Source: Psammoneis japonica (taxonomy: Eukaryota). From it: a DNA stretch of 64,000 nucleotides. The notes beneath the pieces are model-generated. The model ran no database searches, was not told the DNA's origin, and saw only the letters and a list, made by a program, of their open reading frames with translations. The stretch is taken from contig QPGO01000238.1 in assembly GCA_008632985.1 (NCBI GenBank), positions 1 to 64,000 on the forward strand, written 5' to 3'. Within the stretch, counting starts at the first letter, position 1. Each line of letters starts with the position of its first letter. Made by a program: the position numbers and the translations under genes. Shown here piece by piece: positions 1-60,139 of the stretch.

Positions 1-300
1 CGTGACTGCCAGTCGGCACCAAAAACCGTCTCCAACAAGCGAACCTGCAGCACAAAAGTGCTCTTTGCAACACTTTGGTGCTTCAGTCTTGCACATGAAA
101 GCGCTCCCCAAGCATTTGACGGTCGAACTGTGCACATGAAATCCTCACAGCGGGAGACCCTACACATGCTCCCGTGTGCACTCAATGCACCTCGGTTGCG
201 ACCTTCTTGTTGGGTTGCAAGCCCTCCTTGTCGTCCACCCTCCTCGCTGGGGTCATTCTCGCCATTGTGCAACCCGCCTCGTTGGTCTCCACCTCGTTGC
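1..300 (+). repeat. Dispersed repeat, TpA-converted copy (partner at 6459-6807)
   Basis: Aligns by eye to 6459-6807 (gactgccagtcggcaccaaaaaccgtc...). Most differences are TA in the partner versus TG/CA here. This copy lacks ~60 bp present at ~6678-6727. Confidence 0.9.
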
Positions 301-1149
301 TTGGACCCTTCTTGTTGGGTTCGGCGGGGCCGAACCCTCCTCGTCGGGCTCCACAAGTGCACAGGGCGCGCACCCATGAACGCAGCACTGTCACCCGTCA
401 CCCCTGCATCAGTGGCACTGTGGGATGTGGTTGTGTGTGATGTGTGATGATGTCATCACATGCATTGAGAAGAGAACATTTGCGCTGAGGCGAGTGCACA
501 TGCATGCGCGAGCAATCTCCTGCATCCCACAGCACCCCTAAATCTCGAGCCGCCTCGAAAGGGACCCCACCAATTGAGCACTTTTGGTGCTCTGCAGCAC
601 CGCGAAAAAAGCACGCGTCCCAGCAACCTTGCCATGATGCTTTCAGAATGTTCATCCCCTGCCACTTCTGACGAAGAAGCGACCAACGGCGCTGATGTCA
701 TCAACCCCACTGCAACAGGTGATGTTGTTGAAATTGCCATGCAAGCCCATTGCTTCCGAAATTGTGCCTCATTTGCTGACACTCTGTTTTTCAGCTCCGC
801 TGCCTGCTGAAGCTTCTGGCATGAATGACAGTGCCGCTTCTGCCTTTCCCGCATCTGCCAAGCCCGAAACGTTTCCCAACCCGACTGGTGCAAGAGGCAA
901 TGATGTCGCTTTGTCTCTCATCAGCCCCAAACTGATGAAATCATTTGGCACCAACTGACACCATTTTTGTGTTGCTGCGCAGTGCCTGCCACTCATTCCA
1001 TCACCAACGCCAATGCAATGACCAGTGGTCCGGCGGATGACACCCCCGGTGCCTTTCCTGCTGCGCCCAGTCCATCAGGCAACAACACATGTGTCGTGCA
1101 TTGCTGTTGTGTGCCAAAAATGCCAATGGCGCTGTTGCACTGTCTCACG

Positions 1150-1600
1150 TGCAGCATGCATGCAGACAAAAGGTCATTTTTGTCACGCCCTTTGTGACAT
1201 TTAAAGGCTGTGACACGTCGCCGTGATGCATTGGCTCTCATTGGTGGCTGCATGTTGCACTCCTCTCCATGTGTCACGCATCCATGCGGCTCTTTACTAA
1301 CGTGTGCTGACACTGCACGGTTTTGGCGGAACAGTGTGGGTACGCACGAAGGAACACACAGAACTGCACAGAGTTTTATGTGCTCGACAGTGATCAACGT
1401 TGCTGCAGACAACTCCCGCTCAGGGTTTCGAACCCCTGGCCTCCTGCCCAATGGTTGCGATGAACCACTCCGCTGTGAATTCATGATGCAGCATGCATGC
1501 AGACAAAAGGTCATTTTTGTCACGCCCTTTGTGACATTTAAAGGCTGTAACACGTCGCCGTGATGCATTGACTCTCACCAGTGGCTGTGTGTTGCACACG
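1150..1600 (+). repeat. Direct repeat of ~110 bp (1150-1260 and 1488-1597)
   Basis: gcagcatgcatgcagacaaaaggtcatttttgtcacgccctttgtgacatttaaaggctg occurs twice, with ctgTGac vs ctgTAac between copies. Confidence 0.85.
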
Positions 1601-1699
1601 CCATTTTCACTCATGCTCCACAGTGCATGCCACTGCTTCTGTTGCGAGCACCATTGGTGCATCGGCTTCCCTTGGCGACTTTGCCATGCCCAATGTTGT

Positions 1700-2270
1700 G
1701 ACCCAGGTCAGTCTTTAACGTGTGGCCCAATCAAACCCTCAAGCGATGAAAGCACACGGCTGGTGCAGGTTGCAGTCATGAGCAGGAATGATGCAGAACC
1801 AGTTGCTGAGGCCTCCAGCAGCAATCGGTCGCGAAGGCCAAGGAACCCCTTTCGGAACGAAAGCCCAAAGCTCGCAAATGAATGCATCTCATCCAGGGCA
1901 ATCATTCAAAGCAGACCTTTGTGCAACAAATCCAGAAGCAAGTGCAAGAGTGGTTCATTAGAAACAATGAGCTGAGGGGAGCAAAACAGAAAGACAGTCC
2001 CATGTGCCAACGTTGGCAGGTGGTGCATCATCTCCGTGAAGCGTTTCATGTGAGATGGATTCTCGCAGACCTCACCCAAATGAAAGCTGGTGACAGAGCC
2101 ATGGCTGTGCTGTGGGGAGGCTCTGTGCATTAATTTCCAGCACTGGTCGGAGCCAAGCGACAGCAGGGGGACTGCGGTGAGGACAACACCACGAATGCAA
2201 ACTCCAACAACATCTCGAACAAGCGATTTGCCACCACCTGCAGGTCGGACTGGCAGATGAGGTCTGGTGG
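1700..2270 (-). pseudogene. RecQ-like SF2 helicase fragment
   Basis: One frame across an in-frame TGA (1906-1908) carries motif I VRPAGGGKSL, motif Ia VPLLSLGSDQ, FCSPQ, motif II LDEMH followed by FGLSFRK, and motif III LLMTAT. Confidence 0.75.
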
Positions 2271-3350
2271 AATGTTTGTGAGAAGACTCAATTGAGCTGG
2301 ACCCAAGCAACCACGGTCTGCCAACCATGTGGATGCTTGCCAAAGATGTCGGCAGATGCAGTGTCAAAAGTTTGGGAGGCACAGTTCGAAAATGGGTTGT
2401 GGCCCGCCGTGGTGCAAGCAGTGGCATGCACTGTGGAGCATGAGTGAAAATGGCATGAGACAGCGCAACAGCACCACTGGCATTTTTGGTGCACTACAGC
2501 AACACATGATGCATGTGTTGTCACCTGATGGACCCGGCGCAGCAGGAAAGGCACCGGGGGTGCCATCCGCTGCAATGTTGGTCATGGCGTTGGCACTGGT
2601 GACAAAATCAGTGGTGGGCGCTGCGCAGTCACAGAAAAAAGGTGTCAGTTGGTGCCAAATAATTTCGTCAGCATTGGGCTGATGAGAGACACAAAGCAAC
2701 ACAACTGCCTGTTGCGCCAGTCGGGTGAGGAAAGGTTCCGGGCGTGGCAGCTGCGGGAAAGGCAGAAGCGGCGTTGTCATTCATGCCAGAAGCTTCGTCA
2801 GGCAGTGGAGCTGAAAAAACAGAGTGTCAGCAAATGAGGCATCATTTTGGAAGCAACAGGGCTGCGATGGTAATTTCAACAACGTTGCCTGTTGCAGTGG
2901 GGCAAATGTCATCAGCGCCGTCGGTCGCTTCTTCGTCAGAAGTGGGAGGGGACGAACATTCTGAAAGCACTGTGGTGAGGTTGTTGTGCCGCGTGCTTTT
3001 TTCGTGAAAAAGAGATGGCTGAAAATTGGTCAATTGGTCCTTCAAGGTGGCTCAAGATTTAGGGGAGAGTGCAGGCATCGCTCACTCCCAACTGGGAGGT
3101 CTGCAAGTGGTGCGGAAGAAGACAGAGGGCACAGCTGATCTACAGCAATCGAAATCGTGCAGCGCGCACATCCAGTGTTTGTTGTTTTTCGCATTGTTTC
3201 CACAAGCATTGCATTGCCAACGAATCCAAATAATGTCATTTCTGTGTTTGACCACAAATGCAGTGTTTGTCATTTTCACAAATGAGGTCCGTGAGACATG
3301 AAGACACGTCGGACATTGCTGACATCACACCACATTGCCATTTTAATTGA

Positions 3351-4687
3351 GTGGGCGCACCACAGTTCTTGGCCCATTCATTTTCTACGTGGCCTGGCAC
3401 AACCCAAATCTGTGTAGATTCAGTGCATTTTGCCCTGTGGAACGACTTTTGGGACTGTTTTCTGGCTCGCGGCTCAAAACAACACGCAAAATGACACGGA
3501 CAATGGCGTTTCGCCGATTTCAAAAATGCGGTTGTTTCTGAGGTACTTTGTAGTGTGCTCTCAACGGAAATGTCTCACGTCACAGCATGAGGCATGTGAC
3601 AAGCTCGAGAGCACACAGGTTCGTGTGGGCAGCTGATGGTGGAAATTCTCACTGAAGGTTCGCGTTGACAGCGTCGCTTCTGTTGCATCACGACCGACCT
3701 TGTGTGTTGCCATTCGTGCTGTGTGTTTCGTTGAGGCTTCACACATTGATGCCCGTTTGACTTGCATGTGTTGTCTCTTTCTGCATTGTTCTTTAGTTCT
3801 GTGGGGTCTCCGTCGTCGCAAGGCATCCCAGAAACACTTTTCCTCGTCAAGAATGTCAGTTCTGCAATGCGATGGCCACGGCAATTCCAAAACAAGGCAA
3901 AGTCACAGACACAGCATCAGGCTGACTTCATGACAAATGTGGTGACTTGGGGCTGTGGTGTCAAAAGCTGGACAAGCTCTCAAGAGCTCAGATCCGTCAC
4001 AGTGCATTTTTGACAATGGCTCTCCCCGCCTCCACTTGGTGATGCGGAGTTTGATTCGGCAGACCAGTGCATCATGGCTGTTCTGAAGGTTTGGATTGCT
4101 TCTTTTGGCTGCAAGGCAGTTTGTGAGCTAGAAACATGTGGCTTGCTTGCCCAATTTGTTGGCCAATGCAACAAACTCAGAGGGTGACAGCCAGGGCAGA
4201 TGATCATTTTGTCAAGTCTAAAAAGCAGCTAAAGATTGCATGCCAACAAGAAGAACTAGCTTTAAAATTTTTCATGGGGGCACAGACTTTATTTTGTTGG
4301 GGCATCAAGTCTCCATTGCTGTTCTAGAGTGAACATTGACTGGTGTTGTCACCGCCAACGTGTGAGTTCGCCTTGACAATCGGCTGCACTGTGTTCTGAG
4401 ATTTTGGAACAAAAGACAACTTTTGTCTACATTGCTCCATCATAAGAGAAAGCTCATCAGCTTCCCCTGGCCCTTTTGGAGCAATCGGGTAAGTGAAAGA
4501 GGAGCTGCAGAAAGATGCGGACGACGCCATTTTGATGCGTTGTCGTCAGGTGGTGTCGTCGTGAGGTCGCGTGATGGAGTGCCATGCTTTCTGTTTTGTA
4601 CTGCGTCTGTGTAGGAATGTACGTGATTGGCTCTCTGGTAGTTTCTACGTAAAAAGTGTACCAGGCGATCTCTGGACCGCCCTCTTA
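3351..4687 (+). repeat. ~1.33-kb dispersed repeat, copy A (inverted partner at 10087-11418)
   Basis: Starts gtgggcgcaccacagttct and ends ctctggaccgccctctt. The reverse complement is at 10087-11418, and the ORF track gives identical peptides (4136+ = 10448-, 3980- = 10568+). Confidence 0.9.
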
Positions 4688-6458
4688 ATCCTTCGACTCC
4701 AAACGAGGCCGGTGTCAGGCAGTTCCGACGCACGCCTACCAAGAAAGACCCTCATGACGTCATTTATGACGTAAGTTCAACTCACACTAAATGTTTGAAT
4801 AAAAGTTACCTAAATGCAGTTGTCACGTTTCTTCGCCGATAAAGTCTAACGAACAAGCAATCGTCCGGAACAACAAATGATGAACACTAGATCGGTGACC
4901 CCTGTATGGTTCAGGATTTTTCCTGCAACTGTTAGCATTTGTGAACAAATGTAATTGCCTTTACATTTATACAAATATAAAAATGCCATGACGTGAGCAT
5001 GCATCACCATGACATCACCAACCATGCTCTCCACTGACGAAGGGGTGCAGCACTGTGACATCAACAGTTTTTTGGGACTCCCACTGCTCGAGTGTGGGCA
5101 GGCCCAAGCAATTCTAAAAACCGTTGACGGCCGTCACTGTGCAATTTGGTGGCATTTTGGCACTCCACACATGAGGCATTCATGTGGAAATTGCGTGCGT
5201 GCAAACACCAGGGGAAGCAAGCGCAGAGAAGAGACGACGCGAGCGAAGCACGAGCGAAGAGACCGACAATGATGCAAGTGCCGGAGAGAGACGCAAGGAG
5301 AGCAATCCAACGACATTGCAAGGGCGCAAAAGAGAGAAAAGATCTGTTTGAGTTAGCGCCATGTCTTCAATGAAAAGAACAAAGCAAGAAGACATTGGCG
5401 TGCACAAAAACTTGCACAAAGAAGCAAGGCACCAGCGCGTGCAAAATGGCCACATCTGCGGTGACATGGAACAACACAAGGAGGTGAGAACATGCTTTTC
5501 CACAAATGCAATGCAACAACGAGCAAACGACCAATGGAAACTCACCAGTGGGGTCAAAACTTGGGGTGCCTGGATCGTCAACGGCGGGAGGAACGACGGA
5601 TGAAAGAGAGTCTGGTGGTTCCACGGAGCAGGACGACAAAAGCAGGCGGTGGATCCGCGCGAGCAATGGCAGAAAGTCAGCACTTGGGATCAAGTGACTC
5701 GTCCAGTCCATGAAAGTCATGGTGGTGGCTTGGAGAATGGAGGCAGTGCCATGGCAGGACGGCATGGACCGGGGCAGAAGCAGCGCGCCATGGTGGAACG
5801 GCGACGGAGCCAAAAACGGTGACGGCGACGGTGCAGACCCATGGACTTCGATGTCCCCATCTTCGAGTCCTGTGCATCAAGATGCGGGACAAGGAGGTTC
5901 AAGGTGAGCGCCATTGCGAACGAGAATGGGGGAAAACGAGACTTGGTTCCGCGAGAATCAGAGCTCACCACATTTTGGGGTCATTCTGACCCATTCTAGA
6001 GCCGTGGCTCACTCGCGTGGCATGACCCAATGGCGTGTGACACTGTCAAGCAAGGTAGGGGTCGGGAGGCGGTGCCTTACCGGTCAAATCAGCCAAAAGC
6101 GCCATTGTCGGAGGGAGCGGTGGTTGTCGATCGGCCGCTCGGAAAATTGTGAGCCATCAACTCGACCGCGCACCGTTCGGAGTCGAACAAAATTTCTCGG
6201 TACAAAATGTACACAAATGTACGTCAGTATAAAAATCGTGTAGACGGGTTGTAAGTAGAACCGTTACTGTCTCTATGTAGACTACAAGGATTCTGCCGTT
6301 AAACTATACCAATATGTATAATTCTACGTGGTCGATTTGAATCAATCCCACCAACGTTTTGAATTTCGATCGTAATAACGGCTTTAGGTGCTGAGATGAA
6401 TATAATATATAAGTTTGAATTAAATATCATATATATCGTTAATAATTTTGAATGATTG

Positions 6459-6807
6459 CGCGACTGCCAGTCGGCACCAAAAACCGTCGCCAATAAGTAA
6501 ACCTGCAGTACAAAAGTACTCTTTGCAATACTTTGGTACTTCAGTCTTGCACATGAAAGCGCTCCCTAAGTAGTTAACGGTCGAATTATATATATAAAAT
6601 CCTCACAGCGGGAGACCCTATATACGCTCCCGTGTGCACTCAACGCGCCTCGGTTACGACCTTCTCGTTGGGTTGCACAATGGCGAGAACGACCCACAGC
6701 TTGTCGTGTGGCCTTCTCGTCGGGCTAAAGCCCTCCTCGTCGTCCACCCTCCTCGCTGGGGTCGTTCTCGCCATTGTGCAACCCGCCTCGTCGGTCTCCA
6801 CCTCGTT
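6459..6807 (+). repeat. Dispersed repeat, TpA-retaining copy (partner at 1-300), with an internal 26-bp perfect inverted repeat
   Basis: Homologous to 1-300. gggttgcacaatggcgagaacgaccc (6670-6695) is the reverse complement of 6759-6784. The copy runs into the N gap. Confidence 0.9.
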
Positions 6808-7155
6808 NNNNNNNNNNNNNNNNNNNNNNNNNNNNNNNNNNNNNNNNNNNNNNNNNNNNNNNNNNNNNNNNNNNNNNNNNNNNNNNNNNNNNNNNNNNNN
6901 NNNNNNNNNNNNNNNNNNNNNNNNNNNNNNNNNNNNNNNNNNNNNNNNNNNNNNNNNNNNNNNNNNNNNNNNNNNNNNNNNNNNNNNNNNNNNNNNNNNN
7001 NNNNNNNNNNNNNNNNNNNNNNNNNNNNNNNNNNNNNNNNNNNNNNNNNNNNNNNNNNNNNNNNNNNNNNNNNNNNNNNNNNNNNNNNNNNNNNNNNNNN
7101 NNNNNNNNNNNNNNNNNNNNNNNNNNNNNNNNNNNNNNNNNNNNNNNNNNNNNNN
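6808..7155. other. Assembly gap (348 N)
   Basis: Run of N bases. Confidence 1.
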
Positions 7156-8179
7156 AGCAACTTCAAAAATTGTCAAGTCCCCAAGAGCCAAGAGACGTGA
7201 AAAAAGACAACACACTGTGTACGCAAACAGCACGAACCGCCCATGACAGCGGCAACTTTCGGACTGGTGAGCATAAAAATAACACCATTAGAACCGCAGC
7301 ATTCTTGTTAGTATGTGTTCGTTGTTTCTCTTTTTGTTCAATGCAAGTCCGACACTCTTAAGGGATAATTTCTTCAACTTTCAAGTAGAAAGTTTTGCAC
7401 CGTCCTTCTCGGGCCATTTAGTCCACCTATACTAAAATCATTTAGCTTACATATAACACCGTTCAATCCGCCATATCTAAATTACTCTCTATGGTAGTTT
7501 CTGTGTCATAGAGATCTAGTTTAGGGACCTTATGCATGGCCATCTGCGATGCAAGAAAAGACCTGAAAAATTCTTTCAATACAACAGGTCCATTTTGGAA
7601 AGAAGTACGCAAAGCGTTACCATTTCCTTCTCGACACGTATCATAACTACTTCATATTATCGATTGATGCTACTTCTACAGTCATGAAGTAGAGAGAAGT
7701 TGTCCAAAACAACCACACACCGCCATGGCGACTTGCACAAAAACAATTCTATGTACGCGCGGCTTCAGTAGAAGTACTTGACGTGATGCGTCTGATACAG
7801 TGTACAGTACTGTACGTACCGTACTGTAGGTAGATTGCGTGCGTGCGGCTACCGTACCGGTAGTAGCTGGGGGGGCAATAATGATGTCAACATTACTTAT
7901 TGTGAACAACAAAGTTTTTAGCTGACGTCGTTTGTCCAATCAGATTTCCATACCGCCGTTATGACCGCACTTACCATACCGCGGATACGTTTTCTGATTT
8001 ATGACAATGAAAATACGCTGGGTATATTCTTTAATGTCTGTAGAACATACCCGGGCAAACTGTCAATGATGTGCTACAAGTATGAAGGAGGAGATACGTT
8101 CGTAAAATTGCCTCTTTTTCTGTTGGCGATCATTACATTCTCACTGCAGCGCAAATTTACTGCGGAGCTCGCACGTAGA

Positions 8180-10086
8180 ATTACACGGGCCCAATGTCAC
8201 ACGGAGTCCCACCTAGGACTGGAACCCGTCGTCTGAGATCTGTGATGCCCCCAGGCTTTGGCAACTTGCCAGTGCCGCCTTTTTGTCTCATTTGGAGCAG
8301 CAATGTCCCCAGAACGGACCCAGCCTTGACATCTTTGAGTCTGAGACCCGCGATGCATGCTTTCCTCCATGATCTCAGCACTGTGCAAGCAGCGGCCCAA
8401 TCCAGTGTTGTTTCCTGAATGTGCCGCATGCCATGATGTTGCTTGAGACCTTTGGGACTCACACCGTGAAACCTTTGGCATCAACCCTTTCCTCGACCAC
8501 ACTGGAGATCTCGCACAATTCCTCATGGTCTTTGCCATGCGATGCTTGCTGCGAATGATGCATTGTCCTCCCCGGTGGTGTCACTGTCCGGTCTTGCACA
8601 GTGAAGGACATTCTCCATGGTGTCAGCCAGATGGTGGCCAGCTTGGGATCCCAAGACCAATGGCCAGTGGGTCCTCGCCAACTCAACTTTTGCTCACCCC
8701 AGAGCAACTGAAAGGGTGGCGCAAATGAAGATCCGCCAATGAGGGTGCAACCCATCCTGCTGATGTTGGTTTGTCATGTGTGCATTGTGGCCAAACAAAG
8801 CACAAGCACCTTGAGCTTGCCACGGTCAACATGGCACACATCAGTTTCTTTTTCTTGTGCTGCCCAGGCAAACATGCACGGGAACCACAGTGAAGTCCAA
8901 GAGCAGCCCCTTTTGACTTCAAGATGTGATGTTCCACATCAGCGCTCATCACCTCCATGCGTTGTTGGCTCCGTTCATGCATCTCCACACCACAACTTTT
9001 GCCACCCTTGTGTTTGTGATGCAAAAGAATGAAATTTTTGGTGAAATGATTGGGCACATGGATCAAGCCACGACCCTGCGTCTGGTTGTGCACAAGCCCA
9101 AGATGCGCGCCAGCATGACAAAATTTCCGTTGCTGTGGAAAGTCAGATTTGTCTTGTGTTGTTAATTGCTTGATGCAGGCACCGCATGCGTGCAAATGGT
9201 CAATGTTGCGCATTCAACCAAGGCACAATCTTGCATGGTGACATGCAAGTTGACTCAACCAACACAATCTTGTCACCTGCCACATGTTGTTTTTGCGACG
9301 TGGCTTGCCCCAAGCATCTCCATCTCACCCATTTTTGCGACATGAACAATGGAGTTCTCCTTTGCTGTGGGAAATGATTGCCCTGTGTGCAGCAAATGCT
9401 TTTTCCCAGCTGGTTTTCAACACCACCTGAAAACTTGTCTTCCTTGCAAACTTTCCTTTTCTCAAAGCATTCGCGCTGTTTCTTCCCATCAATCGGATGA
9501 TGCTCATTGTGGCAAACATCTGCAAATGGGAGAATCCGAAGAACCAGATGACGTTGCTGCCTCTTCTGCCCTTGGCCAATGACAGCCAGACATCAACTGC
9601 ATTGCCCATGAGATGATCTGTCAAACACACCAGGCTGAAGCCAATGAGAGAGAAGCAACAAGGCAGCTGCGCCTTGTTTTCTTTTGATTGTGACACTGCT
9701 GTTGTGACTGGGATGATTTGTTTTTGCAACCCACCCTCTGCTCTTGGGCTTTTGCTTGGCCCAGGATGCAAGGGTTGGGACCAACCGGCAAGCTGTCCCA
9801 GCTCATTGCTCCCAGCCTGGTGCACCCACTGTCCAAGTCCAGGCAACTGTGAAAGGTGGACTGGGTGGTGCAGCCACTTTTGTGATGCAGGCATTTCGCA
9901 TCGTTTGTTGCAAGCACCAATCTTTTGACACAAAAGTGTTGCTTTGTGCAGACATGAAGGTTTTGACTTTAATGTCATTTTTCCTGTGGTTTCCTTTGCT
10001 TTCGTTGCAGAAAAGAGCACCCACAATGCAACAATTTTCAGAAATCTTCGGAGCATGTCCACTCATTTTAGAGAAATGTCAGAGGT
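8180..10086. repeat. TpA-depleted degenerate block, probably transposon-derived
   Basis: Almost no TA dinucleotides, strongly TG/CA-rich, many overlapping Cys/His-rich ORFs and no recognisable domain. It abuts the 10087-11418 repeat. Confidence 0.5.
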
Positions 10087-11418
10087 CAAGAGGGCGGTCC
10101 AGAGATTGCCTGGCACACTTTTTACGCAGAAACCACCAGAGAGCCAATCACGTGCATTCCCACACAGACGCAGTGCAAAACAGAAAGCATGGCACTCCAT
10201 CACGCGACCTCACGATGACACCACCTGATGACAACGCATCAAAATGGCGTCGTCCGTGTCTTTCTGCAGCTCCTTTTTCACTCACCCGATTGCTCCAAAA
10301 GGGCCAGGGGAAGCCAGTGAGCTTTCTCTTGTAATGGAGCAATGCAAACAAAAGTTGTTTTTTTATTCCAAAATCTCAGAATGCAGTGCAACCGATTGTC
10401 AAGGCGAACTCACACGTTGGCGGTGACAACACCAGTCAATGTTCACTCTAGAACAACAATGGAGACTTGATGCCCCAACAAAATAAAGTCTGTGCCCCCA
10501 TGAAAAATTTTAAAGCTAGTTCTTCTTGTTGGCATGCAATCTTTAGCTGCTTTTTAGACTTGACAAAATGATCATCTGCCCCGGCTGTCACCCTCTGAGT
10601 TTGTTGCATTGGCCAACAAATTGGGCAAGCAAGCCACATGTTTCTAGCTCACAAACTGCCTTGCAGCCAAAAGAAGCAATCCAAACCTTCAGAACAGCCA
10701 TGATGCACTGGTCTGCCGAATCAAACTCCGCATCACCAAGTGGAGGCGGGGAGAGCCATTGTCAAAAATGCACTGTGACGGATCTGAGCTCTTGAGAGCT
10801 TGTCCAGCTTTTGACACCACAGCCCCAAGTCACCACATTTGTCATGAAGTCAGCCTGATGCTGTGTCTGTGACTTTGCCTCATTTTGGAATTGCCACGGC
10901 CATCGCATTGCAGAGTTGACACTCTTGATGAGGAAAAGTGTTTCTGGGACACCTTGCGACAACGGAGACCCTGCAGAACAAAAGAACAATGCAGAAAGAG
11001 ACAACACATGCAAGTCAAACGGGTGTCAATGTACAAAGCCTCAACGAAACACACAGCACGAATGGCAACACATGAGGTCGGTCGTGATGCAACAGAAACG
11101 ACGAACGCAAACCTTCAGTGAGAATTTCCACCATCAGCTGCCCATGTGAACCTGTGCACTCTCGAGCTTGTCACATGCCTTGTGCCACGACGTAAGACAT
11201 TCCGTTGAGAGTACACTACAAAGTACCTCAGAAACAACCGTATTTTTGAAATCGGCGAAACGCCATTGTCCGTGTTATTTTGCGTGTTATTTTGAGCCGC
11301 GAGCCAGAAAACAGTCCCAAAAGTCGTTCTACAGGGCAAAATGTACTGAATCTACACAGATTTGGGTTGTACCAGGCCACGTAGAAAATGAACGGGCCGA
11401 GAACTGTGGTGCGCCCAC
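10087..11418 (-). repeat. ~1.33-kb dispersed repeat, copy B (inverted relative to 3351-4687)
   Basis: Reverse-complement match to 3351-4687 along its whole length. Confidence 0.9.
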
Positions 11419-21271: not shown

Positions 21272-21299
21272 TTAAGAAAATTCAAATTGTCTCATGCAC

Positions 21300-24200
21300 T
21301 TGAGGTTGTCACCTCATGCTCATCGTCTGCCCTCATGAGCACGAAAGAATCATGAGAAACTTGGTCAATCTCATTTTCACATTGATCTTTTTTGTCTGGC
21401 AAATTTTTGGTCATCTCAGGGCCTTTTTTTAAATGCAAATTGTCTCACATGCCTGCAACTTCAAAAAATGCCACAGTTGCAATGACATGACATGTTTGAG
21501 AGAAGCACCCCTTTTCAGCCCTCAGTCTTTTCATCTAAATTTGCTTTTGCTTCCAAGTGCTCTGGTTGGCGACACGTGGGTTTTGGCTGTCTGAGAGATG
21601 TCTGAGGGGGAGAGACCAGGCTTTCATGAACAGCAGCACCTTTTTCCAGAACTTGGCAGCTCTGTTCAGGCCAGCTTGGGTGAGCTTGGCAGGACTCTGG
21701 TTGGCTTTGAGGAATCCGAGTGTAATCTTGGAGGGTGTGTGTGCCATCAAAGCTCTCACAGAACCCTGGGGGAACCCGGTCAAGAAAAAACAGCAAACGG
21801 TTGAAGAATCAAACAAACCAAGACCAGCCCATGGCAGTTGCATCATGTCTTTTGAAGGTTTTGCCGTTGCCCCTTCAACATCAGCTGTTGCTTCCACGCC
21901 AGGATTGGAGGATTGTGCAAAGTCATTTGCTTGTCAAAACCGTCCCGTGGCAAAGCGCAGCGACAGTGAGGGCGATGCTGTGATCGAATCTGACGACCCG
22001 TTTTCAAAGGAGGTGAAAAAAACATGGAGCAGATCACAGGCTGCAACCGCAGCCAATCGTCTGCTGCAAGAGAGCAGGATGGAAAGACACCCAGCTGCTC
22101 CAACGCAGAAAAGAAACATTCGGGACACATCACCACGATGGATGAAATTGCCAAGCATGTGACCAGCACACCACAGTGGCCTTTGGATCGCAAGACCAAG
22201 TGGTTCACGCCGGTGCCAATCCCAGAGAATCTCAAAAAGGGCCGGGTGTGGAACCTGGCACCATGATCTGCAATGTGCAGGGAGGGGGGGGGGGGGCGAG
22301 GGCCCCCCAAGGGCCCCCCAATCTGTCATTGTGTGGGAGTTTGGAATTTGCCAGCTGCTCTTGCAATGCCGGCACTCTGCCTGGGCATTTGTTGCTCGCT
22401 GTGGCTGTTGCACAGGTGCTGTCATTTTGCAACCCCTCAAGACCCCCAAGATCAAGAACAAGAAGAAGCAGCCTGGGGCGCACATGGCCATGTTTGCTTT
22501 CAGGCATCCTTCTCCTGACCCCCAAGATCAAGAACAAGAAGAAGCAGCCTGGGGCGCACATGGCCGTGTTTGCTCTCAGGCATCCTTCTCCTGCCTCCTG
22601 CTCCACCACGATCTTGAACAAGAAGAAGCAGCCTGGGGTGCACATGGCGTGTTCGCTCTCTGCCACCCTTCTCCCACCTCCTGCTCCACCATGATTTTGC
22701 AAAGTTCTTCTCGCAACTGAGACTCCTTCTGCTCGCAGCGAGCCCAGCCCTCCTGACCACTTTTCTCTTCAGAGCTTGCTCAGTCTCTGCCTTCACTCCT
22801 GCTCTCATGATTTTCTCTTTGTGGCAGGTTTGTCATGCACCACACCCCGCCATGAGCTTCAGCCCAAAGTTTTGTGTGTGAACAAGGAATGGAAGCAAGG
22901 TCTTCTCCTGGCACTCGCCACCCATGCAGAGCTTCAAGTGGAGGACAAGAAAAAGAACGTGCTGGAAAACTCAACGAGAAGTGACCACGCAGCATGGCAG
23001 GAGGTGTCTTGCTCTGGTTTCTTGTGGCCCTCAGATTTGCAGAAAAGCAAAGGGACAACTTGCACCCTGTCCTAAATCTGGGATCACAGTCATCAGGTCC
23101 ATCATGCTTTGTGGTGACTGGGCCTCAACAAGTTCCACAGACTGGAGATGTGTCTCATGACATGTGGAGCACCTGTCGATTGGTTGCACAAGGTGAGACA
23201 GAAGCAAGATGGCACCTGCTTTTGTGTGTGTGATGCACAATCATCAGCTCCATCTTGACAAGTGCCCACAGCCCATCTCCACACCTTTTTTGCTCCACCA
23301 GTTTCAACTCAGTTTCTCTTGAGTCCATCTTGTTCAAGGGGGTGTCTCACTTTGGTTTCTTGTGGCCTTCGGATCTGCAGAAGAGTGAGGGTGCAACTTG
23401 CACCTTGTCAATCTGGGGTCGCAGTCATCAGGTCCATGCTTTGTGGTGACAAGGCCTCAAAGAGTTTTGCAAACTGAAGATGCACCTCCGTCTTGACAAG
23501 TGCTCACAGTCCATCTCCACACCTTTTTTGCTCCACTGGTTTTGACTCAGTTTCTCTTCAGCCTGTCTTGTTCAAGGGGGCACTTCACTTTGGTTTCTGG
23601 TGGCCTTCGGATCTGCACAAGAGAAGTGAGAGAATGACTTGCACCTCATCAATTCGCAGTCATCAGGTCCATGCTTTGTGGCAACGAGGCCTCAAAGAGT
23701 TTTACAAACTGAAGACATGCCTCGCGATGTGTGGGGCACCCATCGATTGGTTGTGCCAGGCAAAACAGCTGCAAGATTGCACCCATTTGTGCGCACTGCA
23801 CACAATGCATGGGCATCAGCTCCATCTCAACAAGTGCTCACAGCCCATCTCCGCACCTTTTTTGCTTTTGTCTGAAGCTGTTTTGGCTTCCATGCACTCC
23901 AGCTGACAACACCTGGGTTTTTTTGGCAAAGAAATGTCTGAAGGGGAAAGACCAGGCTTTCATGGACAGCAGCACCTTTTTCCAGAACTTGGCAGCTCTG
24001 TTCAGGCCAGCTCAGGTGAGCTTGGCAGGACTCCAGTTGGCGCCAACAAGCAACAGATTTTGGCAGTGTTCATCTTGTTCATTGTGAAGCCTTGAAATGG
24101 TCTCTTGTTGGATCCTCTGGCATGCCCACCAATCTGCCACTGTGCTGGAGTCTGGAGCTTGCCAGCTGCTCTCACAACCTGAGCATTTGTTGCTTGCTGA

Positions 24201-24770
24201 GACTGTTGCGCAGGTGCTGTCATTTTGTCAACCCTTCAAGACCCTCATGCACGTGGCTGTGCTCAACCTGCCACAAGCAGCACAGGTTGGACCTGGTTGT
24301 CAAAAGTCAGAAAAATGACTGCTCGCCATTGCCGCCATTGTGACGACAAGGCACCGCCATTCATTCAGGGCAAGCAGCAGCACGTTCGGCATCACACTGG
24401 GTTGGCAAGCACCCCAGCAGCACGCTTGAGACTTGTTGGAAAACCAGTGGGCAAGGTGAGGGAGGCATGTGGTGCAAGCATGGCCGAAGAGGGTCTGCCA
24501 CCGGTTGAGGACTTTGGCAGAAGGCAATGCCATGTTTGAAGCTTTCTCCTTGGCTTGGGCCCTCTGCTTCTTCCAAATGACACAAGAGGAGGGTGGAATG
24601 TGATGCAAGCGTGGCCGAAGAGGGTCTGCCGGTTGAGGACTTTGGCAGAAGGTGACGCCATGTTCAAAGCTTTCTCCTTGGCTTGAGCCCTCTGCTGCTT
24701 CCAAATGATGTGCTCTTCCTCCATCGTAAAAGGCGAGGCACCCGGTGGCAACCATGGCGGCAAGGTGCAA
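21300..24770. repeat. TpA-depleted degenerate block with internal duplications
   Basis: A ~75-bp unit occurs about 3 times (22441-22695, gaacaagaagaagcagcctgggg). 21545-21705 resembles 23880-24040, and further repeats lie at 23000-23870 and 24480-24715. Confidence 0.75.
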
Positions 24771-25799
24771 GGTGCGTTACGTACATTTTATGTGGACATA
24801 CATTTTTTTTAAATGTTGCTACAGCATGTTTCAATCGTACGTCAATCGTGGGTTCGTACGAAGGACAGATCAGTCACACAGAATTGCAAATACGATCGCT
24901 TGGCGATGTTGACATCACACGTGTCAACAGCAATCGTACCCGGACAATCTGTTGTCACAATTGTATTCCCCGAAAGGCCTTTTAGTCTGTAGAAGTAGTG
25001 CAAAAGCTTCAGGCCATTGAGAACTCGTTCGGAGAAACCCAAAATGATTGAGTGAAATCCAATCTCATAATTTTCACTTTTTGCACCTTGTTCTGCTTTC
25101 GTTTGCACTCATTTTTTGAACACAGAGCAGGGGCCATGAGGATGTGGGGCTGGCCACTGCGTTGTTGACATTGCGGTTGGCTGTGAGACCTCATGAGGAG
25201 TTGTTGTCGCTGACAGCAAGATGAGCTTGCCACCAGCCTCGTTGCTCCCAGAAGGCTGGACAGTGCCATCAGAGCACTCTTGAGCTGCTTCAAGTGCGGT
25301 TGATCAAGTCCTCAATGAGCTCCTCTTTTTGTGGCTTCTCTTGGTTTGTTCTGAGGCCTTTTCTTTTTCTTTCACATGACTTTCATGCTGGCTCTCTTCT
25401 TGGCGCAGCTGTTCCTCATGCTGGCCCTCTTTTTTCTGCAACAGCTCTGCGTGCTGGCACCCCTCAGCACACTTGATCTTTCTCCTCCCACTCCATCACA
25501 ATCTTGCAAAGATCTTCTCACAACTGAGGTTCCTTCTGCTTGTGCTGACCCCAATCCTCCTGAAATGCCCTCTGCGCTGGCATCAAGGCAGTGCTTGATT
25601 TGTGCTGATGATGTGGTGGTGGCATGAGTGCGACACCTTGCTCTGCCAGTTTTTGAAAGCTGTGCCTGTCATGCTGAATCACTTGCTTTTGCTGCTTCTG
25701 CTCCACTGCCTTCTTGACAGGATCAACTTTTCAGGCCATCATCCTCCACAGCACTCTTCAAAGCTCTGTGTCTCCTTCATTGCGGGGCTTTGTCCTCCA

Positions 25800-28700
25800 C
25801 AGTGCACTCTGCTCAGCTGATTGAGCTCATTTTGCGGGTGTTGATCAATCAGTTCTCATCACAGCCCACACAGTGCAAGTTTGAATGATGCTCCTGTCCC
25901 CAGCCCTTGACCTTGGAACACAGCATTGCCCAAGTGCTTGTGGTGCAGCAAGTGATGTCCACCACCATGCACAAAAATCTGCCGGCTCTGCACCAAAGCA
26001 TGGAGAGCTGGAGGACTTGCAGCAAAGTCCACCCCTCTTCCTTGCAGCACAGCATTGTCTGGGTGCTCATGCCATTGTGTGCTTGCTAGAATCCACCAGC
26101 TTTGTGCCAAGCACAGAGAGATTGGCTGCGCAACTCTTTTCCATGCAGTGGAGGTGATCTTTGCAGCCTTTGTGCTCTCCCAGTTCTCACATGCATCTTT
26201 CAGATCAGAGCAAGAGGCTGGCTGCCAAGGCATCAAAATGTGCAAAGCAAGACTTTAACTTCTTGTGCAAGGAATCTCCTGCAAGCTGGCAGAGTTTGCA
26301 GAACATGAAGACTCTGTCTGATGGTGACCAGCTTGCACAGAAAGCCCACCAACGATCTTCCATTCCATCATGTGCAGGATCTCAACCTTTTTTTTTAGAC
26401 AATGGAGAAGCAATCAGTTGTTGCTTGCACAGCTCACACAGATTGTGCCATGTCATGTTGCTTCCATCACTTGGCTTGAAGAGAGCCAGGGTTCGCTGCC
26501 ACTCATTGAGCACAGAGGCAGGCATGTCATCATTCTCCACCTTGGCAGCAGTGACCATCAAAGCAGCATTGGGGGCACAGGAGCTTCTTGTGGTGGACAG
26601 CTGTGCACTTGGTTGTCTTGCTGCTGACAACACAACCACCAGCAATGTGGAATGCACAGACACAGCTTGCCCTCATGAAGCACCAGCTGAGGAAGACAAG
26701 GGTGAGCTCCAGTGTGCTGCAAGCTGGAAGGAAAGCACCAGCTTTCTTTTGGCTTGTGTCATGGTCCACATCAGTGCTGCAAATGTGAGCTTCTTCAACA
26801 AGTTTCCAGGGCAATTCCCCCACAATTCCTCAGGATGTCAAGGACAAGTTTGCTCAACCAGACAAAGGGCATGTCAAGCTTGATGAAGACAATGAAGCAG
26901 GCTCTCTTTCTTGTTAATTTGCCAAGATTGCCACTGAGGCAAGAAAGATTCATGACTTTCACATGGCCCTTTCTGCATGTCACAAAGGTCATGCCCTGGT
27001 GCAAGTGTCACATCTGGGCTCTGTTGCAATCTTGGAGTTCACCAATGAAGTCTTCCATGCAATCAGGCACGCAACCTGTTGCTCTTTTGTCAACCCCAAC
27101 TGGCCCAGAATCAGTGTCGAAGGCCACTGTGTGTCACAAGATGGTTTCATGCTGAGCCTGCATCACCACCACAACCACAGTCAATGCTGCAGCATGATGT
27201 TGGCTCATGATCGCTTGGGGCTCTTAAGCATGTCTGTGGACTGGCAGAGTTTTTGGATTCTCCCTCTTCTGGATGAGCCAGTGTTGGCACTGGTGGCCCA
27301 GATGGGGCATGCAATTTGTTCTCCAATCTTGTGCAATGTGTTGGTCAAATGTTGCCAACCAGAGTGCAGCCTGCACCATCGCTTGCACTTGGGTGGGCAG
27401 AATGGCAGATGCCCTGGGATGTTGCAACAGAATGACAAGCAGTTGACAAGGATGGCAGCTGATGGACTGCAATGAGCGCATGCCATTGAACAGTCTGCGA
27501 TGATCAGTGACAGCACAGCATCACAAGGTTTCTAATTGCACTTCCATCTGGCACTCAATCACAGCAGTCACAACCGTGGCCATGCTCTGGAAGTCATTTG
27601 GATTTTTTGTCTGACCCCTCTTCATCAATGACTGCCTTGCATGCCTTGGCTGGCTCAAGGTGTCTCTTGTTGTTGCCCTTGTGGCTGAACTTCTTGGCAT
27701 GATGTCCATCCTCACTGTTCTTGTCTTCAGCTGGCCTTTTCTTGTTGCACTCCAGGTCAAATGCACAATTCTCAGGAGTGTGCTTGAGCCACTTGCCATG
27801 GTGGCCATCTCCAAGGTCCTTGCAGCAGCAACAGCATGGTGCACCATTCCAATGCCTTGGTTTGGAGATCACATCCTTGGCAGGGTGCAAGTTCTCTTTC
27901 ACCCACATTGGCGCAGCCCCCTTGTCACCATCTTTGCCTTTACCATGCTTGGAATCATCCCCATGGTGTTTCCAGCAGTGTCCTGCTTTTTGGCTTGCTT
28001 TTCAACACCTTTCACCTTGGCTCACAAGGCAAGCATCTTTTCCTCTTCTTTGCTGGACAAGTTCTGCTTCTTCTTCTGAACTGAGTTCTCATGCTTGTCT
28101 GCAAGCATCATGAGGTGAGTTGGCATGATGTCTGATGTCCTTGCCACCCTCATGCTCCTCTTGCTTGTTTCCAATGCACTTGACAAAGCTCTCATCTGAA
28201 GCAGCCAAACTCCCTTTGAACAGATTCATCAGGAGGTCTTCCATGGTTTCACCATGAGACCTCAACGTCGCAAGCAGAAGAGCCAAACTTCATGATGTCA
28301 TGACCAATTGTGAGAAAATGTTGGTCAAGCTCCACGAGTTTCATGTGGGTCATGCTTGTGGCTGTGTTCATGTCAAAACGTGACTTTTGAATGATGACCT
28401 TGAGAAGCAAACAACCAGAAAGCTTGTCTCTGATCTTGTGGGACTTGTCATGGATGTGCAGCACCTCATCCTTTCCACTTTTTTGAGATCAAGTTGATGA
28501 GACAGTTGTGTCCGAGAATGGCACTGTCTTGGGCCCCTTTGCAGGAGCTCACAATGCATGACTCCTTGTGTCTCTTGATGTGTTCCAAGCTGACCTCACC
28601 ACAATTGGTGAGCAGGTTTGAGTGCGTTGCATCAGGATCATCAGGGTCCTTGGGTGTCATGAAAATTCCAGTCACCAGGTCATTTCATCCAAGCAAGCTG

Positions 28701-28950
28701 GCCCTGTCCTCAATGTCATTGAGGAACTGAAAGAGTTTGCCTGGAGTGCAGTGGAACATCTCCCCACTTGGCAGCTCTTCCAAACCAGTTTGGAAGAGCC
28801 TTTGTCCAGCACTCTTACAAAAGCCAATTGCTCCCTAAGTCACCTGAGCCAGAGTTGGAGCAAATGGAATGTCCTCATCAGATGATGAGGATGACACCAC
28901 ACTTAAAGCATCTGACACATCTCTTGTCTTCAGTGCAAAGGAAGTGCGTC
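25800..28950 (-). mobile_element. Old, heavily degenerate LTR-retrotransposon (probably copia-like) gag/protease remnant
   Basis: Minus-strand fragments resemble diatom copia gag: NLLTNCGEVSLEHI..AQDSAIL, LSGCLLLKVIIQ..DMNTAT, GETMEDLLMNLFKG.LAASD..FVKCI, and a Zn-knuckle-like GKW..H.PENC. A protease-like FDTDSGPVGVDKRA lies at ~27080-27120. Both TA and CG are depleted, and the ends are not defined. Confidence 0.6.
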
Positions 28951-31128
28951 ATGACATCCAGAGCACAGTCAACAGACAAAGTGTGATGATGAACATTGGA
29001 CATGGGGCGATTCCAGGTGCTGGTGTTGCAGTGGCTAAATTGAGATTGTGAGGAGAGGAAGCTCTCTGTGTCTCTTTTTTGAGGTCCTTTGAGTGACATT
29101 GATCCCAATGGTGCAAGTCACATTGCAACGGTGAGTCACAATGACTGCCATGATGATTTGACAATCTTCACAGCAAGTTCCTCCCCAGCAATGACTTGCA
29201 CTCAGGGTCAAAAAGTGAACAGCAGCTGTTCAGGCAGATCTTGAAGAAGCACAACAAGTGCCATTTTAAAAGCCAATGGCTGAAAAGCACAAGCTCAAAA
29301 TGAGCAAGTCAAAGAGAAGAAGTGGTTTGCATTTGCCTTGGTTTTTGCACGACACCTTTGTTGAAGAAAAGCAGACTGCTCCAAAATCTCTTGGTTGCTG
29401 ATGCATGAGAAGTGTCTCAAATGTGCCAAGGCACTGGGAACTGATGGAAAACTCAAGGCACCTGCAGGTTGGATTGCAAAGACCTCAAAAAATCATGACA
29501 AGGTTGAAACCAATTTTTGCAGAAAAGCAAAATGAGAGAGATCAGATGCAGAAGCAGGTGATGTCACAAAATGATGGAGATTGAGTGAATTTTTGCCAGT
29601 GTTTTGATGAAAGAGAATGTCCCTCCAGAATGTGCATGGAGTGCCAACTGGGTGGGGCTGTTTCCAAAATGTCCAAACTGAGGTGCACATGGACAAAGCT
29701 GCCAAGAAAGAAATTTGCAAGTGTCAAGCAAATGAAGGATGAGACACAAGCAACCCTCACAGTTTGCACCTCACATGCACCATCAGTGGGAAAGCTCCCA
29801 TTGACTTCACAGTGGCTGACAGTGTTGCAAAACCACTGGTGCCACACACAGATGAACATCAGATCACAGGGTTTTGTTGCAGCAGCAGCATTCTTTGGTG
29901 CACTGGCGACATCTTCTGGCCTTGTTGTTTGTGCATGCATGGCAATGCACGCGCGCAGCTCTCTTTCTCAACAACTGCAGTGCACACATTGAACAATTGA
30001 TGAGGGCACACTGTGAAGGTGACCTCACAAGAGCATTGTGAGAGCACACTGTGAAGGTGACCTCACAAGAGCTCCCCCCCCCCACTCAATGTCACTGGCC
30101 AGCTGAAGCGGGGGCGATGGCCAGTCTCAAAGTGTGCTGCAAGACTCTCCTTCTCACAGAGCTGTCAGAGATGTTTGACATTGGAGGTGGCTGTGAGAGT
30201 GTTGAGCTCACCACCAGTGGAGGTGCTGCCGGCAAGCAACATTGTTGAAGTTGCGAAAGAGTTGTCTTTGGCAGCAAAGCTCCTCATTTGCTTGGCTCAC
30301 CTGGAACAAAGATGATGAACATGCTTGCACCACCAACACAATGAAACATTGCTGGTGCAAGGCCAACATGCATCCTGCATCCTGGCACAACAAACAGGCA
30401 GACACACCAATGATGACCATGGCACTCAAAAGCGTCAGCAGATGAAGTGCTCAGGCGCACCAAAAGGGAGCAGGCATTGTGAAATGTGGTTGATGTTTTG
30501 TGCAACAGGCAAGCAGCAAAGCACTCCACTTGCACCACCCAATGTCATTTTTTAAAAATCTGTTTGATTTGAACTGTGGCCACACATTTGCACAGGGCCA
30601 GCATTGTGTCATTGCACTCTGCAAAACACAGCAAAAGCAGATTGATGATTTGTGCAACAGGCAAGTGCTCCACTTGCAGCACCCAACATCAATTTTTTTA
30701 AAAATCTGTTTGATTTGAACTGTGACCACATGTCCCCACATCTGCGCAGGGCCAGCATTGCATCATTGCACTCTGCAATGCACAGCCAACAGCTTGCAGA
30801 ATTCGGGCACAATTGCACCATTGCACTCTGCGCAATGAAGCCAAGTGCTCTCCCAGGATTCCGGAACAAAGACAATGGACATGCTTGCACCAACTCAATG
30901 AAGCATTGCTGGCACAAGGCTGACACACACCCTGGCACCACAGGCAGATGTCAGTGATGACGTTGGCACACGCAAGCATCAGTGGATGAGGCACTCAGGA
31001 GAGTGGAGCACAAGAAGTCAAGGGAGGGTGTTGTCGAAAAATCAGATTGAAAATTTGTTCAGTGGGCAAGCAAAATGCTCCACTTGTGCCCTGCAATCTT
31101 GACCATTTTAAATCTGTTCAATTTGAGC

Positions 31129-31404
31129 TGACAGGATTTGAACAGGATTTGGGTGCGCGCGAAATGTCGCGCACTGTTTAGTTCACCGCGCACAGTTTTG
31201 TGTGCTTTAGTTCCGCGCATTCGCGCGCGATGTAGTTTGCTTTCGAGCCACAAGGCTCACAAGAATAATGACAGTAGCCCGATTGTGCCGACTTGCACGT
31301 CTTTCGGCTCCTGCAACGGTCTCTGAGCGGAGACTCATCTGCCATTTAGACAGCAGTGAGGAGTTGTTGTTTGAATTCTTGCCATTTGCCTTCAATTTCT
31401 GTCA
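31129..31404 (+). repeat. 5' LTR
   Basis: TG...CA termini. It aligns without gaps to 37951-38226 with ~15 substitutions, all transitions. Confidence 0.97.
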
Positions 31405-38003: not shown

Positions 38004-38226
38004 TTTGCCGCGCACAGTTTTGTGTGCTTTAGTTCCACGCGTTCGCGCGCGATGCAGTTTGCTTTCGAGCCACAAGGCTCACAAGAACAACAACAGCAGC
38101 CCGATTGTGCCGACTTGCACGTCTTTCGGCTCCTGCGACGGTCTCTGAGCGGAGACTCATCTGCCATTTAGACAGCAGTGAGGAGTTGTTGTTTGAATTC
38201 TTGCCATTTGCCTTCAATTTCTGTCA
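37951..38226 (+). repeat. 3' LTR
   Basis: Preceded by a PPT, ends CTGTCA and is followed by the TSD TGAGC. Confidence 0.97.
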
Positions 38227-47508: not shown

Positions 47509-47899
47509 CGTCGAGTGTGTGTTTTCTCTCTCGCGAACGAGAAATGCGAGTTTTTGATGATTTTCTTTTGGCGCGCCCCTCGAGTTTTCGAATGACCCTT
47601 TGGACAAAGCTACTTAGGGACGAAAGAAAGTCAAAAATTACTTATCAGTGCACCGCTGTGCACCGGAAACTATGCCAGTGCACTTGAAGTGCACCGCCCC
47701 CTTCAACTAAGCACACGTCACTATCTCAAAATATCACCCCCCCTCTGGTGCCTATAGATACTTTTCTCGGTACGCTACGCCACCAAAAGATTTCAAAACT
47801 AAAGAGGAACAGCGCTGTGCACTCTATGAGCCGATTACACCGACACACAAACATGATCAGCATTCTCATTTCTGAGCAAGGATGGATCAAAAATGAGGG

Positions 47900-49700: not shown

Positions 49701-49784
49701 TTTCAAATCACATCACAGCAACTCTTGCCCCTCTCACAAAACCACCATCTGCAATCCAACAAAGTACTCTCTAATCTCTCAAAA

Positions 49785-53448: not shown

Positions 53449-53889
53449 TAACGGTAGTGGTCAGATTTCAAAATCTGAGCAATACAGAAATGTCAATGAT
53501 GAATAAGGATTTTAGATTGCTTCTGCCGTAAATATCATTACGCCAATGCCACTAATGAATTCACAAATGAATTTGTATTCCATCCTTTTCCTGAACTTTG
53601 ATCTATCGGCATTTTCGATACGAGTGCTCGACGCGATGACAATGAGGCATGCTTGTATGTGTCATGGCCATAAGCTGTGAGGCGTACCGTCACATTTGGA
53701 TTGAACTCGGGGATCTTGATGTCGAAAGTAGCCATTTGTTTGACATTCGTGATTTTTCATCGCCCACAAACTGGGATTTCAACTGAGTCGAGTTGATGTT
53801 GGACGTGTTTCAAAGCACTGCGTTTGATGAAACAATTGAGGGCTCTGGAATTATGGCATTTTATGCCATGGAGACTTAAAACAGCAAAT

Positions 53890-60135: not shown

Positions 60136-60139
60136 ACAT

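Follow-up and report, generated by a model that had tools for sequence, protein, structure and literature searches.

TpA-specific hypermutation of integrated viral DNA has been described in the chlorarachniophyte Bigelowiella natans (Mettrop et al., bioRxiv 10.64898/2026.01.13.699255). According to the main text of this preprint, two integrated viral regions accounted for 231 of the 302 mutations newly acquired by mutation-accumulation lines; these were almost without exception A→G or T→C, and every such change lay on TpA. They arose at ~6e-7 per site per generation, ~1000-fold over background, and in some lines only. The same text reports 124 clusters of TpA-poor, CpA+TpG-rich windows in the B. 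natans genome and an enrichment of reverse-transcriptase and transposase domains among the TpA-poor genes, and it proposes an ADAT2-like deaminase.

Here we describe the same signature in a 64,000-bp stretch of DNA (hereafter the window) which, judged from its protein similarities, is diatom-like and not Bigelowiella. The acetyl-CoA carboxylase (ACCase) fragment at its end is 74% identical to the protein of Seminavis robusta, 70-73% to Amphiprora and Helicotheca transcriptomes and 88% to a metagenome protein. The coordinates of all features are compiled in Table 1.

Table 1. Position and properties of features in the window (rho, odds ratio of the dinucleotide).
Feature	Position	Strand	Properties
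Repeat copy A, converted	1..298	+	1 TpA left; CA 29, TG 26 in aligned part; cut off by window start
Repeat copy B, unconverted	6459..6807	+	TpA 18, CpG 25 in aligned part; 51-bp stretch missing in A; stops at N gap 6808-7155
1.3-kb inverted repeat pair	3350-4686 and 10088-11419		69 transitions, 1 transversion
TpA-depleted tract	1..4218		25 TA, rho TA 0.10, rho CG 0.63, rho CA/TG 1.70; contains copy A and left part of 1.3-kb repeat 3350-4686
TpA-depleted tract	4979..5996		2 TA, rho TA 0.04
Undepleted stretch with copy B	5997..8214		rho TA 0.94, rho CG 1.22, rho CA/TG 1.05; multi-copy in sequencing run
TpA-depleted tract	8215..11192		14 TA, rho TA 0.07, rho CG 0.45; contains most of inverted 1.3-kb repeat copy 10088-11419
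TpA- and CpG-depleted tract, unclassified repeats	21274..24726		5 TA, rho TA 0.02, rho CG 0.31
Old TpA- and CpG-depleted tract, copia insertion site	25069..31128, remainder 38227-38412		TA 0.25%, CG 0.84% of dinucleotides
Copia 5' LTR	31129..31404	+	TG..CA ends; 5-bp target duplication TGAGC at 31124-31128; 6 TA left
Copia polyprotein frame	32343..37913	+	open but for one in-frame TGA at 33414-33416; RVT_2 domain
Copia 3' LTR	37951..38226	+	target duplication TGAGC at 38227-38231; 3 TA left
TpA-depleted tract	47837..49764		7 TA, rho TA 0.06
TpA- and CpG-depleted tract	53878..58034		9 TA, rho TA 0.04, rho CG 0.21
TpA- and CpG-depleted tract	59987..61478		2 TA, rho TA 0.03, rho CG 0.19
ACCase fragment	62258-64000	-	closest named proteins from diatoms

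A pairwise alignment of positions 1-300 with 6459-6810 was tabulated per position and per dinucleotide. It comprises 298 positions and one 51-bp stretch exclusive to copy B, and the copies differ at 29 positions by 27 transitions and 2 transversions. The original prediction for this pair, a near-complete exchange of TpA for TpG/CpA, proved to be real: the 18 TpA of copy B are CA (9), TG (7), CG (1) and TA (1) in copy A, so that 16 of the 18 read CA or TG and one more reads CG. The latter is the single TA/CG double change (agTAa/agCGa) that had been predicted, and every site example quoted in the prediction was found at its place in the alignment. All 31 CpA/TpG of copy B are identical in copy A. 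A CpG signature, which like the 51-bp indel had not been part of the prediction, was also evident. The 25 CpG of copy B are CG (16), TG (6), CA (2) and CT (1) in copy A; this second signature, CG in B and TG/CA in A, thus comprises 8 sites, with 0 sites showing the opposite case. Changes were found at 18 of 36 positions within the TpA of copy B and at 9 of 50 within its CpG, compared with 2 of 212 elsewhere (Fisher 1.4e-15 for TpA and 7e-6 for CpG over the remaining positions). The two copies are almost identical save at two self-complementary YpR steps, TpA and CpG. A gap of 348 N (6808-7155) lies immediately 3' of copy B, and hence homology past position 298 is unreadable.

The depletion of TpA extends far beyond the repeat pair. 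A two-state HMM on TA positions, with emission rates of 0.035 and 0.003 and a switch rate of 1e-4 chosen by us, delimited 8 depleted tracts that cover 32,588 of 64,000 bp and contain 135 TA, compared with 1309 TA outside. Within these tracts rho(TpA) is 0.02-0.10 and rho(CpA/TpG) 1.6-1.8. In 1-kb steps, long stretches such as 22001-23000 and 25001-31000 reach rho(TpA) of 0.00-0.06 and rho(CpA/TpG) of 1.6-2.0; the genic parts of the window have ~0.5 and ~1.2. The YpR total is nearly the same in depleted and normal DNA (24.35% and 24.07% of dinucleotides) and only its distribution differs (TA -3.8 points, CG -1.6, CA+TG +5.7 in depleted DNA), which is what in-place transitions inside YpR steps would give. 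For CpG, rho is 0.19-0.31 in the old tracts compared with 0.85-1.22 in normal DNA. Among the 75 ORFs of at least 110 aa in depleted tracts other than copia, none scored above a Pfam cut-off, and a transposon origin of these tracts is assumed from their repetition.

For the polarity of the exchange, the copia element provided a test against homologs. A protein search returned 1362 relatives, the best 120 of which were listed; these were 58-69% identical, except for one at 44%. The alignment used the first 40 of the 120 listed homologs >1700 aa, the remaining 80 being left out, and columns with the same residue in at least 80% of these 40 homologs were taken as conserved (679 columns, 37 of them Tyr). 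At the 37 conserved Tyr columns the window element has Cys 15 times, His 14 times, Tyr 5 times and Phe 3 times. The codons at the converted columns are TGY for the 15 Cys and CAY for the 14 His. The element retains Cys at 5 of 5 and His at 25 of 26 columns conserved for these residues, and all remaining residue classes at 80% or more of their conserved columns. Eight homologs subjected to the same column test as a control kept 35-39 Tyr each. Likewise, the Tyr content is 3.0-5.0% in all 120 listed homologs compared with 0.46% in the window copia; over the reading frame 33417-38003, Tyr amounts to 0.5%, Cys to 3.7% and His to 5.5%. The YVDD motif of the reverse transcriptase has become CVDD. 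Because conserved Tyr has turned into Cys or His in this element while the controls keep it, TA is the ancestral and TG/CA the derived state in copia, the opposite of fungal repeat-induced point mutation (RIP).

These results agree with the earlier claim that TA is ancestral, which had been derived from a loss of conserved Tyr codons in copia and now holds against homologs (29 of 37 Tyr columns are Cys or His). The claim had spoken of several copia proteins; tblastn with 5 homologs detected a single copia locus in the window. It had further specified A→G on both strands. That both strands are affected was confirmed by the occurrence of TGY as well as CAY codons, but A→G is indistinguishable from T→C since TpA is self-complementary. 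The TGA at 33414-33416 is the sole in-frame stop among ~1850 copia codons, despite the 29 altered conserved Tyr columns.

The copia LTRs, flanked by a perfect 5-bp target duplication, allow the changes to be placed in time. The 15 differences within the LTR pair are all transitions, 14 of them within TA, CG, CA or TG steps; the three TA common to both LTRs all lie within TTTAG. As both LTRs belong to one insertion, conversion took place at least partly after integration, on DNA. Ordinary divergence of the LTRs is ~1 site in 274, while about nine tenths of TpA have been lost, showing that the TpA conversion rate is orders of magnitude above ordinary substitution. The young copia contains 56 TA and 486 CG, corresponding to a loss of ~90% of TpA at a rho CpG of still 0.75-0.98. 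It is nested in an older tract (25069-31128 and 38227-38412) depleted of both TA and CG. Since the copia retains its 486 CG and the surrounding older tract has lost both dinucleotides, loss of TpA is quicker than loss of CpG and separable from it.

In the 1.3-kb inverted repeat, the left part of copy 1 and the complementary part of copy 2 are converted, with the switch at the tract edges 4218 and 11192. Conversion is therefore tract-wise, with edges cutting through repeat units. At 13 sites of this pair one copy has CA and the other TG, a difference that needs two changes per site. By our estimate CpG decay is too rare in the pair to account for them, and the most plausible reading of these sites is that a shared ancestral TA was converted in the two copies by separate events. 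The two strands are affected to much the same extent: 8 of 9 depleted segments have similar numbers of CA and TG, and no significant strand-coordinated clustering of TG or CA outcomes was found in 4 series (p 0.13-1.0).

Conversion also depends on the neighbouring bases. The base before a surviving tract TA is A in 5% (26% in normal DNA) and T in 43% (23% in normal DNA), and tetranucleotide survival departs from normal DNA with a chi-square p of 1e-23. Presupposing that the ancestral tracts resembled present-day normal DNA, apparent TA survival was 0 for ATAT, 0.006 for ATAG, 0.011 for ATAC, 0.058 for ATAA, 0.075 for GTAA, 0.084 for GTAC, 0.108 for CTAC, 0.217 for CTAG, 0.298 for CTAA and 0.398 for TTAA. 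Survival is thus lowest, and conversion most complete, with T as the next base; TTAA, CTAA and CTAG tend to persist. The base 3' of the target A modulates conversion in the order T >> C > G > A, and a model using only the base after the target A reproduces the survival values within about a factor of two by our arithmetic.

We compared positions 1-6807 with public sequencing data. One run (Logan contigs, one sample) contains 0.40 of the sampled words of 1-620 and yielded 3344 contig pieces that could be placed on 1-6807 at a likeness of at least 80%, 695 of them at least 99% alike; two further runs gave 13 and 0 pieces. The 3344 aligned pieces indicate that 1-6807 is multi-copy, the surroundings of copy B included. 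Among 40 of the 881 variant rows, 8 sites have CA or TG in the window and TA in the contigs, with 0 cases of the reverse; at 5 of these 8 sites TA makes up at least 0.73 of the summed contig depth. None of the 40 rows falls on a site diagnostic for copies A and B. The inserted letters of one contig represent a third copy, which has TG at the site that is CG in A and TA in B, and CA at site 51; it does not decide the polarity. Exact-word scans of metagenome contigs with stretches common to A and B gave 0 matches. At 1136-1589 the summed contig depth was 58,000-113,000, whereas the rest of 1-6807 had hundreds to thousands, which points to a short repeat of very high copy number; 1150-1260 and 1487-1597 are 94% alike.

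For the flagged pair itself, which is polarised by analogy and not by an outgroup, TA is very likely the ancestral state. This is indicated by the asymmetry of the conversion (17 of 18 TA converted, compared with 16 of 47 CA/TG if the direction were reversed), by the tract context, with rho(TpA) of 0.10 around copy A and 0.94 around copy B, by the example of copia and by the 5 other sites in 1-6807 at which TA predominates in the contigs. Copy B is probably near the ancestral state, and copy A, lying in a targeted tract, would have lost 17 of its 18 TpA and, more slowly, 8 of 25 CpG. The single site with CG in A and TA in B requires a step other than the TpA type and counts against this explanation. 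An alternative for the pair alone is a RIP-like polarity, in which the ancestor had CA/TG and C→T changes produced TpA from CpA in copy B and removed CpG in copy A. Two copies give a symmetric context, distributing the 27 transitions over both copies allows every one of them to be written as C→T, and copy B lies in AT-richer DNA (GC 0.37 at 6001-8000). Nevertheless, an ancestor with ~1 TpA in 298 bp would itself be the anomaly, and copy B would have converted just 16 of 47 CA/TG while retaining all 25 CpG. Moreover, the tract of copy B (rho TA 0.94, rho CA/TG 1.05) resembles other non-coding stretches in these values and has no RIP-type excess of TpA, and the sole polarised test in the window, the copia Tyr columns, goes the opposite way. 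We consider this reading of the pair improbable.

For the window as a whole, it is likely that a DNA-level hypermutation turns TpA into TpG/CpA over whole repeat and transposon tracts of a diatom-like genome. This would amount to an A:T→G:C transition on either strand of the palindromic TpA, spread along entire tracts. The chemistry might be an enzymatic deamination of adenine to hypoxanthine, which is read as G, with a TadA/ADAT2-like protein as candidate enzyme. The natural substrate of the TadA/ADAT2 family, A34 of tRNA, is known to come directly after the invariant U33, and such an enzyme would explain the T before the target A. Presumably the enzyme would be directed to silenced, probably CpG-methylated chromatin; diatom transposons carry CpG methylation. 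The effect would be an irreversible disabling of mobile elements through erasure of Tyr codons (including the catalytic one), TA-containing stops and TA-rich signals. No new in-frame stop could arise in this way, so that ruined elements would retain long open frames. The separate loss of CpG would most simply be ordinary 5-methylcytosine decay. More tentatively, and with chances that we put somewhat below even, diatoms, and perhaps also the wider SAR group including Bigelowiella, could possess a RIP-like defence working in the opposite chemical direction: a natural enzyme that acts on chromosomal DNA by deaminating the adenine of TpA, is directed against transposon tracts that have been silenced, prefers T-A-T and erases ~90% of TpA before ordinary mutations accumulate.

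The same process and polarity could also result from thymine-directed chemistry, whereby the T of TpA is modified, for example by TET/JBP-type oxidation to 5-hydroxymethyluracil, and mispairs with G to give T→C. As TpA is palindromic, a T→C change is at the same time an A→G change of the opposite strand, and the data do not separate the two; in dinoflagellates, 5-hydroxymethyluracil reportedly occurs preferentially at TpA and TpC. Yet 5-hydroxymethyluracil pairs well with A, we know of no such base in diatoms, and excision of the base during repair should also give rise to transversions, which make up just 1 of 70 and 0 of 15 differences in the young pairs; we therefore regard this chemistry as unlikely. 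Editing before integration is far less probable still. Here, A-to-I hyperediting of RNA by an ADAR-like enzyme, or editing of cDNA, would be inherited as A→G by the integrating retroelement. It would fit a retrotransposon as the best-characterised target, and it can draw on the preference of ADAR for U 5' of the edited A as mentioned in the Discussion of the B. natans preprint (10.64898/2026.01.13.699255). Editing of the sense strand, however, predicts Tyr→Cys only and is excluded by the equal strand hits (Cys 15, His 14). ADAR-type fixation, with changes on the transcribed strand only and identical LTRs, was rejected for the same reason and because the two LTRs of the copia insertion carry 15 differences. 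Conversion tracts also cut across the 1.3-kb repeat. Finally, ADAR favours G 3' of the edited A, whereas T is favoured after TA in the window.

Systematic miscalls at modified bases in repeats, an artefact of assembly or base calling, are very improbable too. Repeats are error-prone, a 348-N gap lies beside copy B and the compared run may be the assembly's own source and hence not independent. On the other hand, 695 of the 3344 contig pieces match the window at 99% or more, and miscalls would not give TG and CA in equal shares, preserve reading frames or respect a target-site duplication. Hardly any weight is given to an intrinsic composition, by which selection against TA would have kept the tracts, as DNA of foreign or mobile origin, poor in TpA from the outset. 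Although skewed dinucleotide use occurs in some viruses and transposons, the relatives of the copia have normal Tyr content, sister copies in the window are distinguished by exactly this exchange of TA and CA/TG, and the YpR total is conserved. Neither repetition nor mobile origin alone accounts for the targeting, since the multi-copy stretch with copy B and a Crypton-like ORF candidate in normal DNA (45400-47613) are unconverted.

Several further features were noted in the window. The latter ORF (minus strand) encodes 737 aa without interruption, has no Pfam match and adjoins an RdRP gene at 42795-44930. By language-model features its nearest clusters carry NDC10_II, Phage_integrase, DUF3435 or DUF3504, and as a lead it may be a Crypton-like tyrosine-recombinase relative. 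At 43056-43472 (minus strand), the reverse transcriptase of copia homologs shows weak tblastn similarity to the Pfam RdRP ORF (27-37% over 50-170 aa, E 3e-7 to 2e-4), possibly by chance. A DUF285/BspA-type leucine-rich-repeat gene at 13908-15927 (plus strand) contains internal tandem copies at 14265-15560, and the closest database matches to it are surface proteins of bacteria and archaea, with at most 47% identity. A direct-repeat array with 77-92% identity occupies 16425-17656 in normal, AT-richer DNA.

Depleted tracts have consequences for annotation. As TAA and TAG are gone, they yield long spurious ORFs in all six frames, which is a trap for gene callers, and transposon proteins score weakly against profiles since their Tyr is lost. 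Stop-to-stop ORFs of 110-240 aa without family match were seen in several frames on both strands at 22001-31000 and 54001-58000. Dating by LTR divergence would be inflated as well, because only 1 of the 15 LTR differences lies outside TA, CG, CA or TG steps.

The same signature, saturating, on a retrotransposon and repeats of a diatom-like genome would mean that the process extends beyond a single species and beyond viral inserts, and suggests a wider genome-defence process. It offers a second genome for presence/absence comparison toward the enzyme and brings the problem to a group in which laboratory species can be transformed. The mechanistic constraints added here are that the process acts post-integration, on both strands and in tracts, prefers T after TA and is quicker than CpG decay. 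If the reading as an adenine deaminase is true, this would be the first case of a natural DNA adenine deaminase serving in eukaryotic genome defence, and new base-editing enzymes might be obtained from it.

Like fungal RIP, the process in the window produces near-exclusive transitions in one dinucleotide context, hits repeats and transposons on both DNA strands, saturates and ruins coding. RIP, however, makes TpA from CpA and creates stops, whereas the process here destroys TpA, removes TAA and TAG and cannot create an in-frame stop. Fungal RIP also requires duplication and a premeiotic stage, and here the multi-copy stretch with copy B is untouched. RIP was therefore rejected on the opposite polarity in copia, the rho(TpA) of 0.02-0.10 in the tracts and the single in-frame stop in ~1850 codons; a fungal host is likewise at odds with the ACCase fragment, whose best named relatives are diatoms. 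Animal APOBEC (C→U on cDNA) and ADAR (A→I on dsRNA) share with the process here a deaminase-type hypermutation of mobile or viral nucleic acids, and ADAR likewise prefers U before the edited A. These enzymes act before integration and on one strand, in contrast to the LTRs that diverged after integration and the equal strands observed here. Decay of 5-methylcytosine at CpG would account for the second signature (the 8 sites with CG in B and TG/CA in A, and the rho CpG of 0.19-0.31 in old tracts), but it cannot remove TpA and lags behind the loss of TpA in the young copia.

In full-text literature searches for the signature, the 2026 B. natans preprint alone described it and a diatom report was not found; two diatom transposon papers (PMC2806351, 10.1101/2025.10.24.684338), searched by term, yielded neither hypermutation nor dinucleotide bias. 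The accounts of B. natans and of the window agree, as far as the main text of the preprint goes, in T/A→C/G transitions that turn TpA into TpG and CpA and in local tracts poor in TpA and rich in CpA+TpG. That main text is without a next-base effect, tract edges inside repeats, LTR evidence or CpG loss ('CpG' and 'retrotransposon' have 0 matches in it). The evidence differs in type, with de novo mutations in B. natans and a fossil record alone here. Using the two 5% cut-offs of the preprint on 1-kb intervals (rho TA at most 0.43, rho CA/TG at least 1.52), 24 of 64 intervals pass, a count that is approximate as our CA/TG rho is the mean of two values; they include 4 clusters of at least 3 intervals in 64 kb, compared with the 124 given for the whole B. 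natans genome in that text. Unlike in B. natans, the host here is diatom-like with genes that are long uninterrupted ORFs, and the target is an LTR retrotransposon together with unclassified repeats, not the giant-virus or virophage insert described in the preprint's main text. The depletion is also deeper, with rho TpA of 0.02-0.10 compared with 0.45 for the NCLDV region in the same source (10.64898/2026.01.13.699255). The signature thus has one earlier description, in B. natans, and is extended here to a new host group and new targets at a much greater depth.
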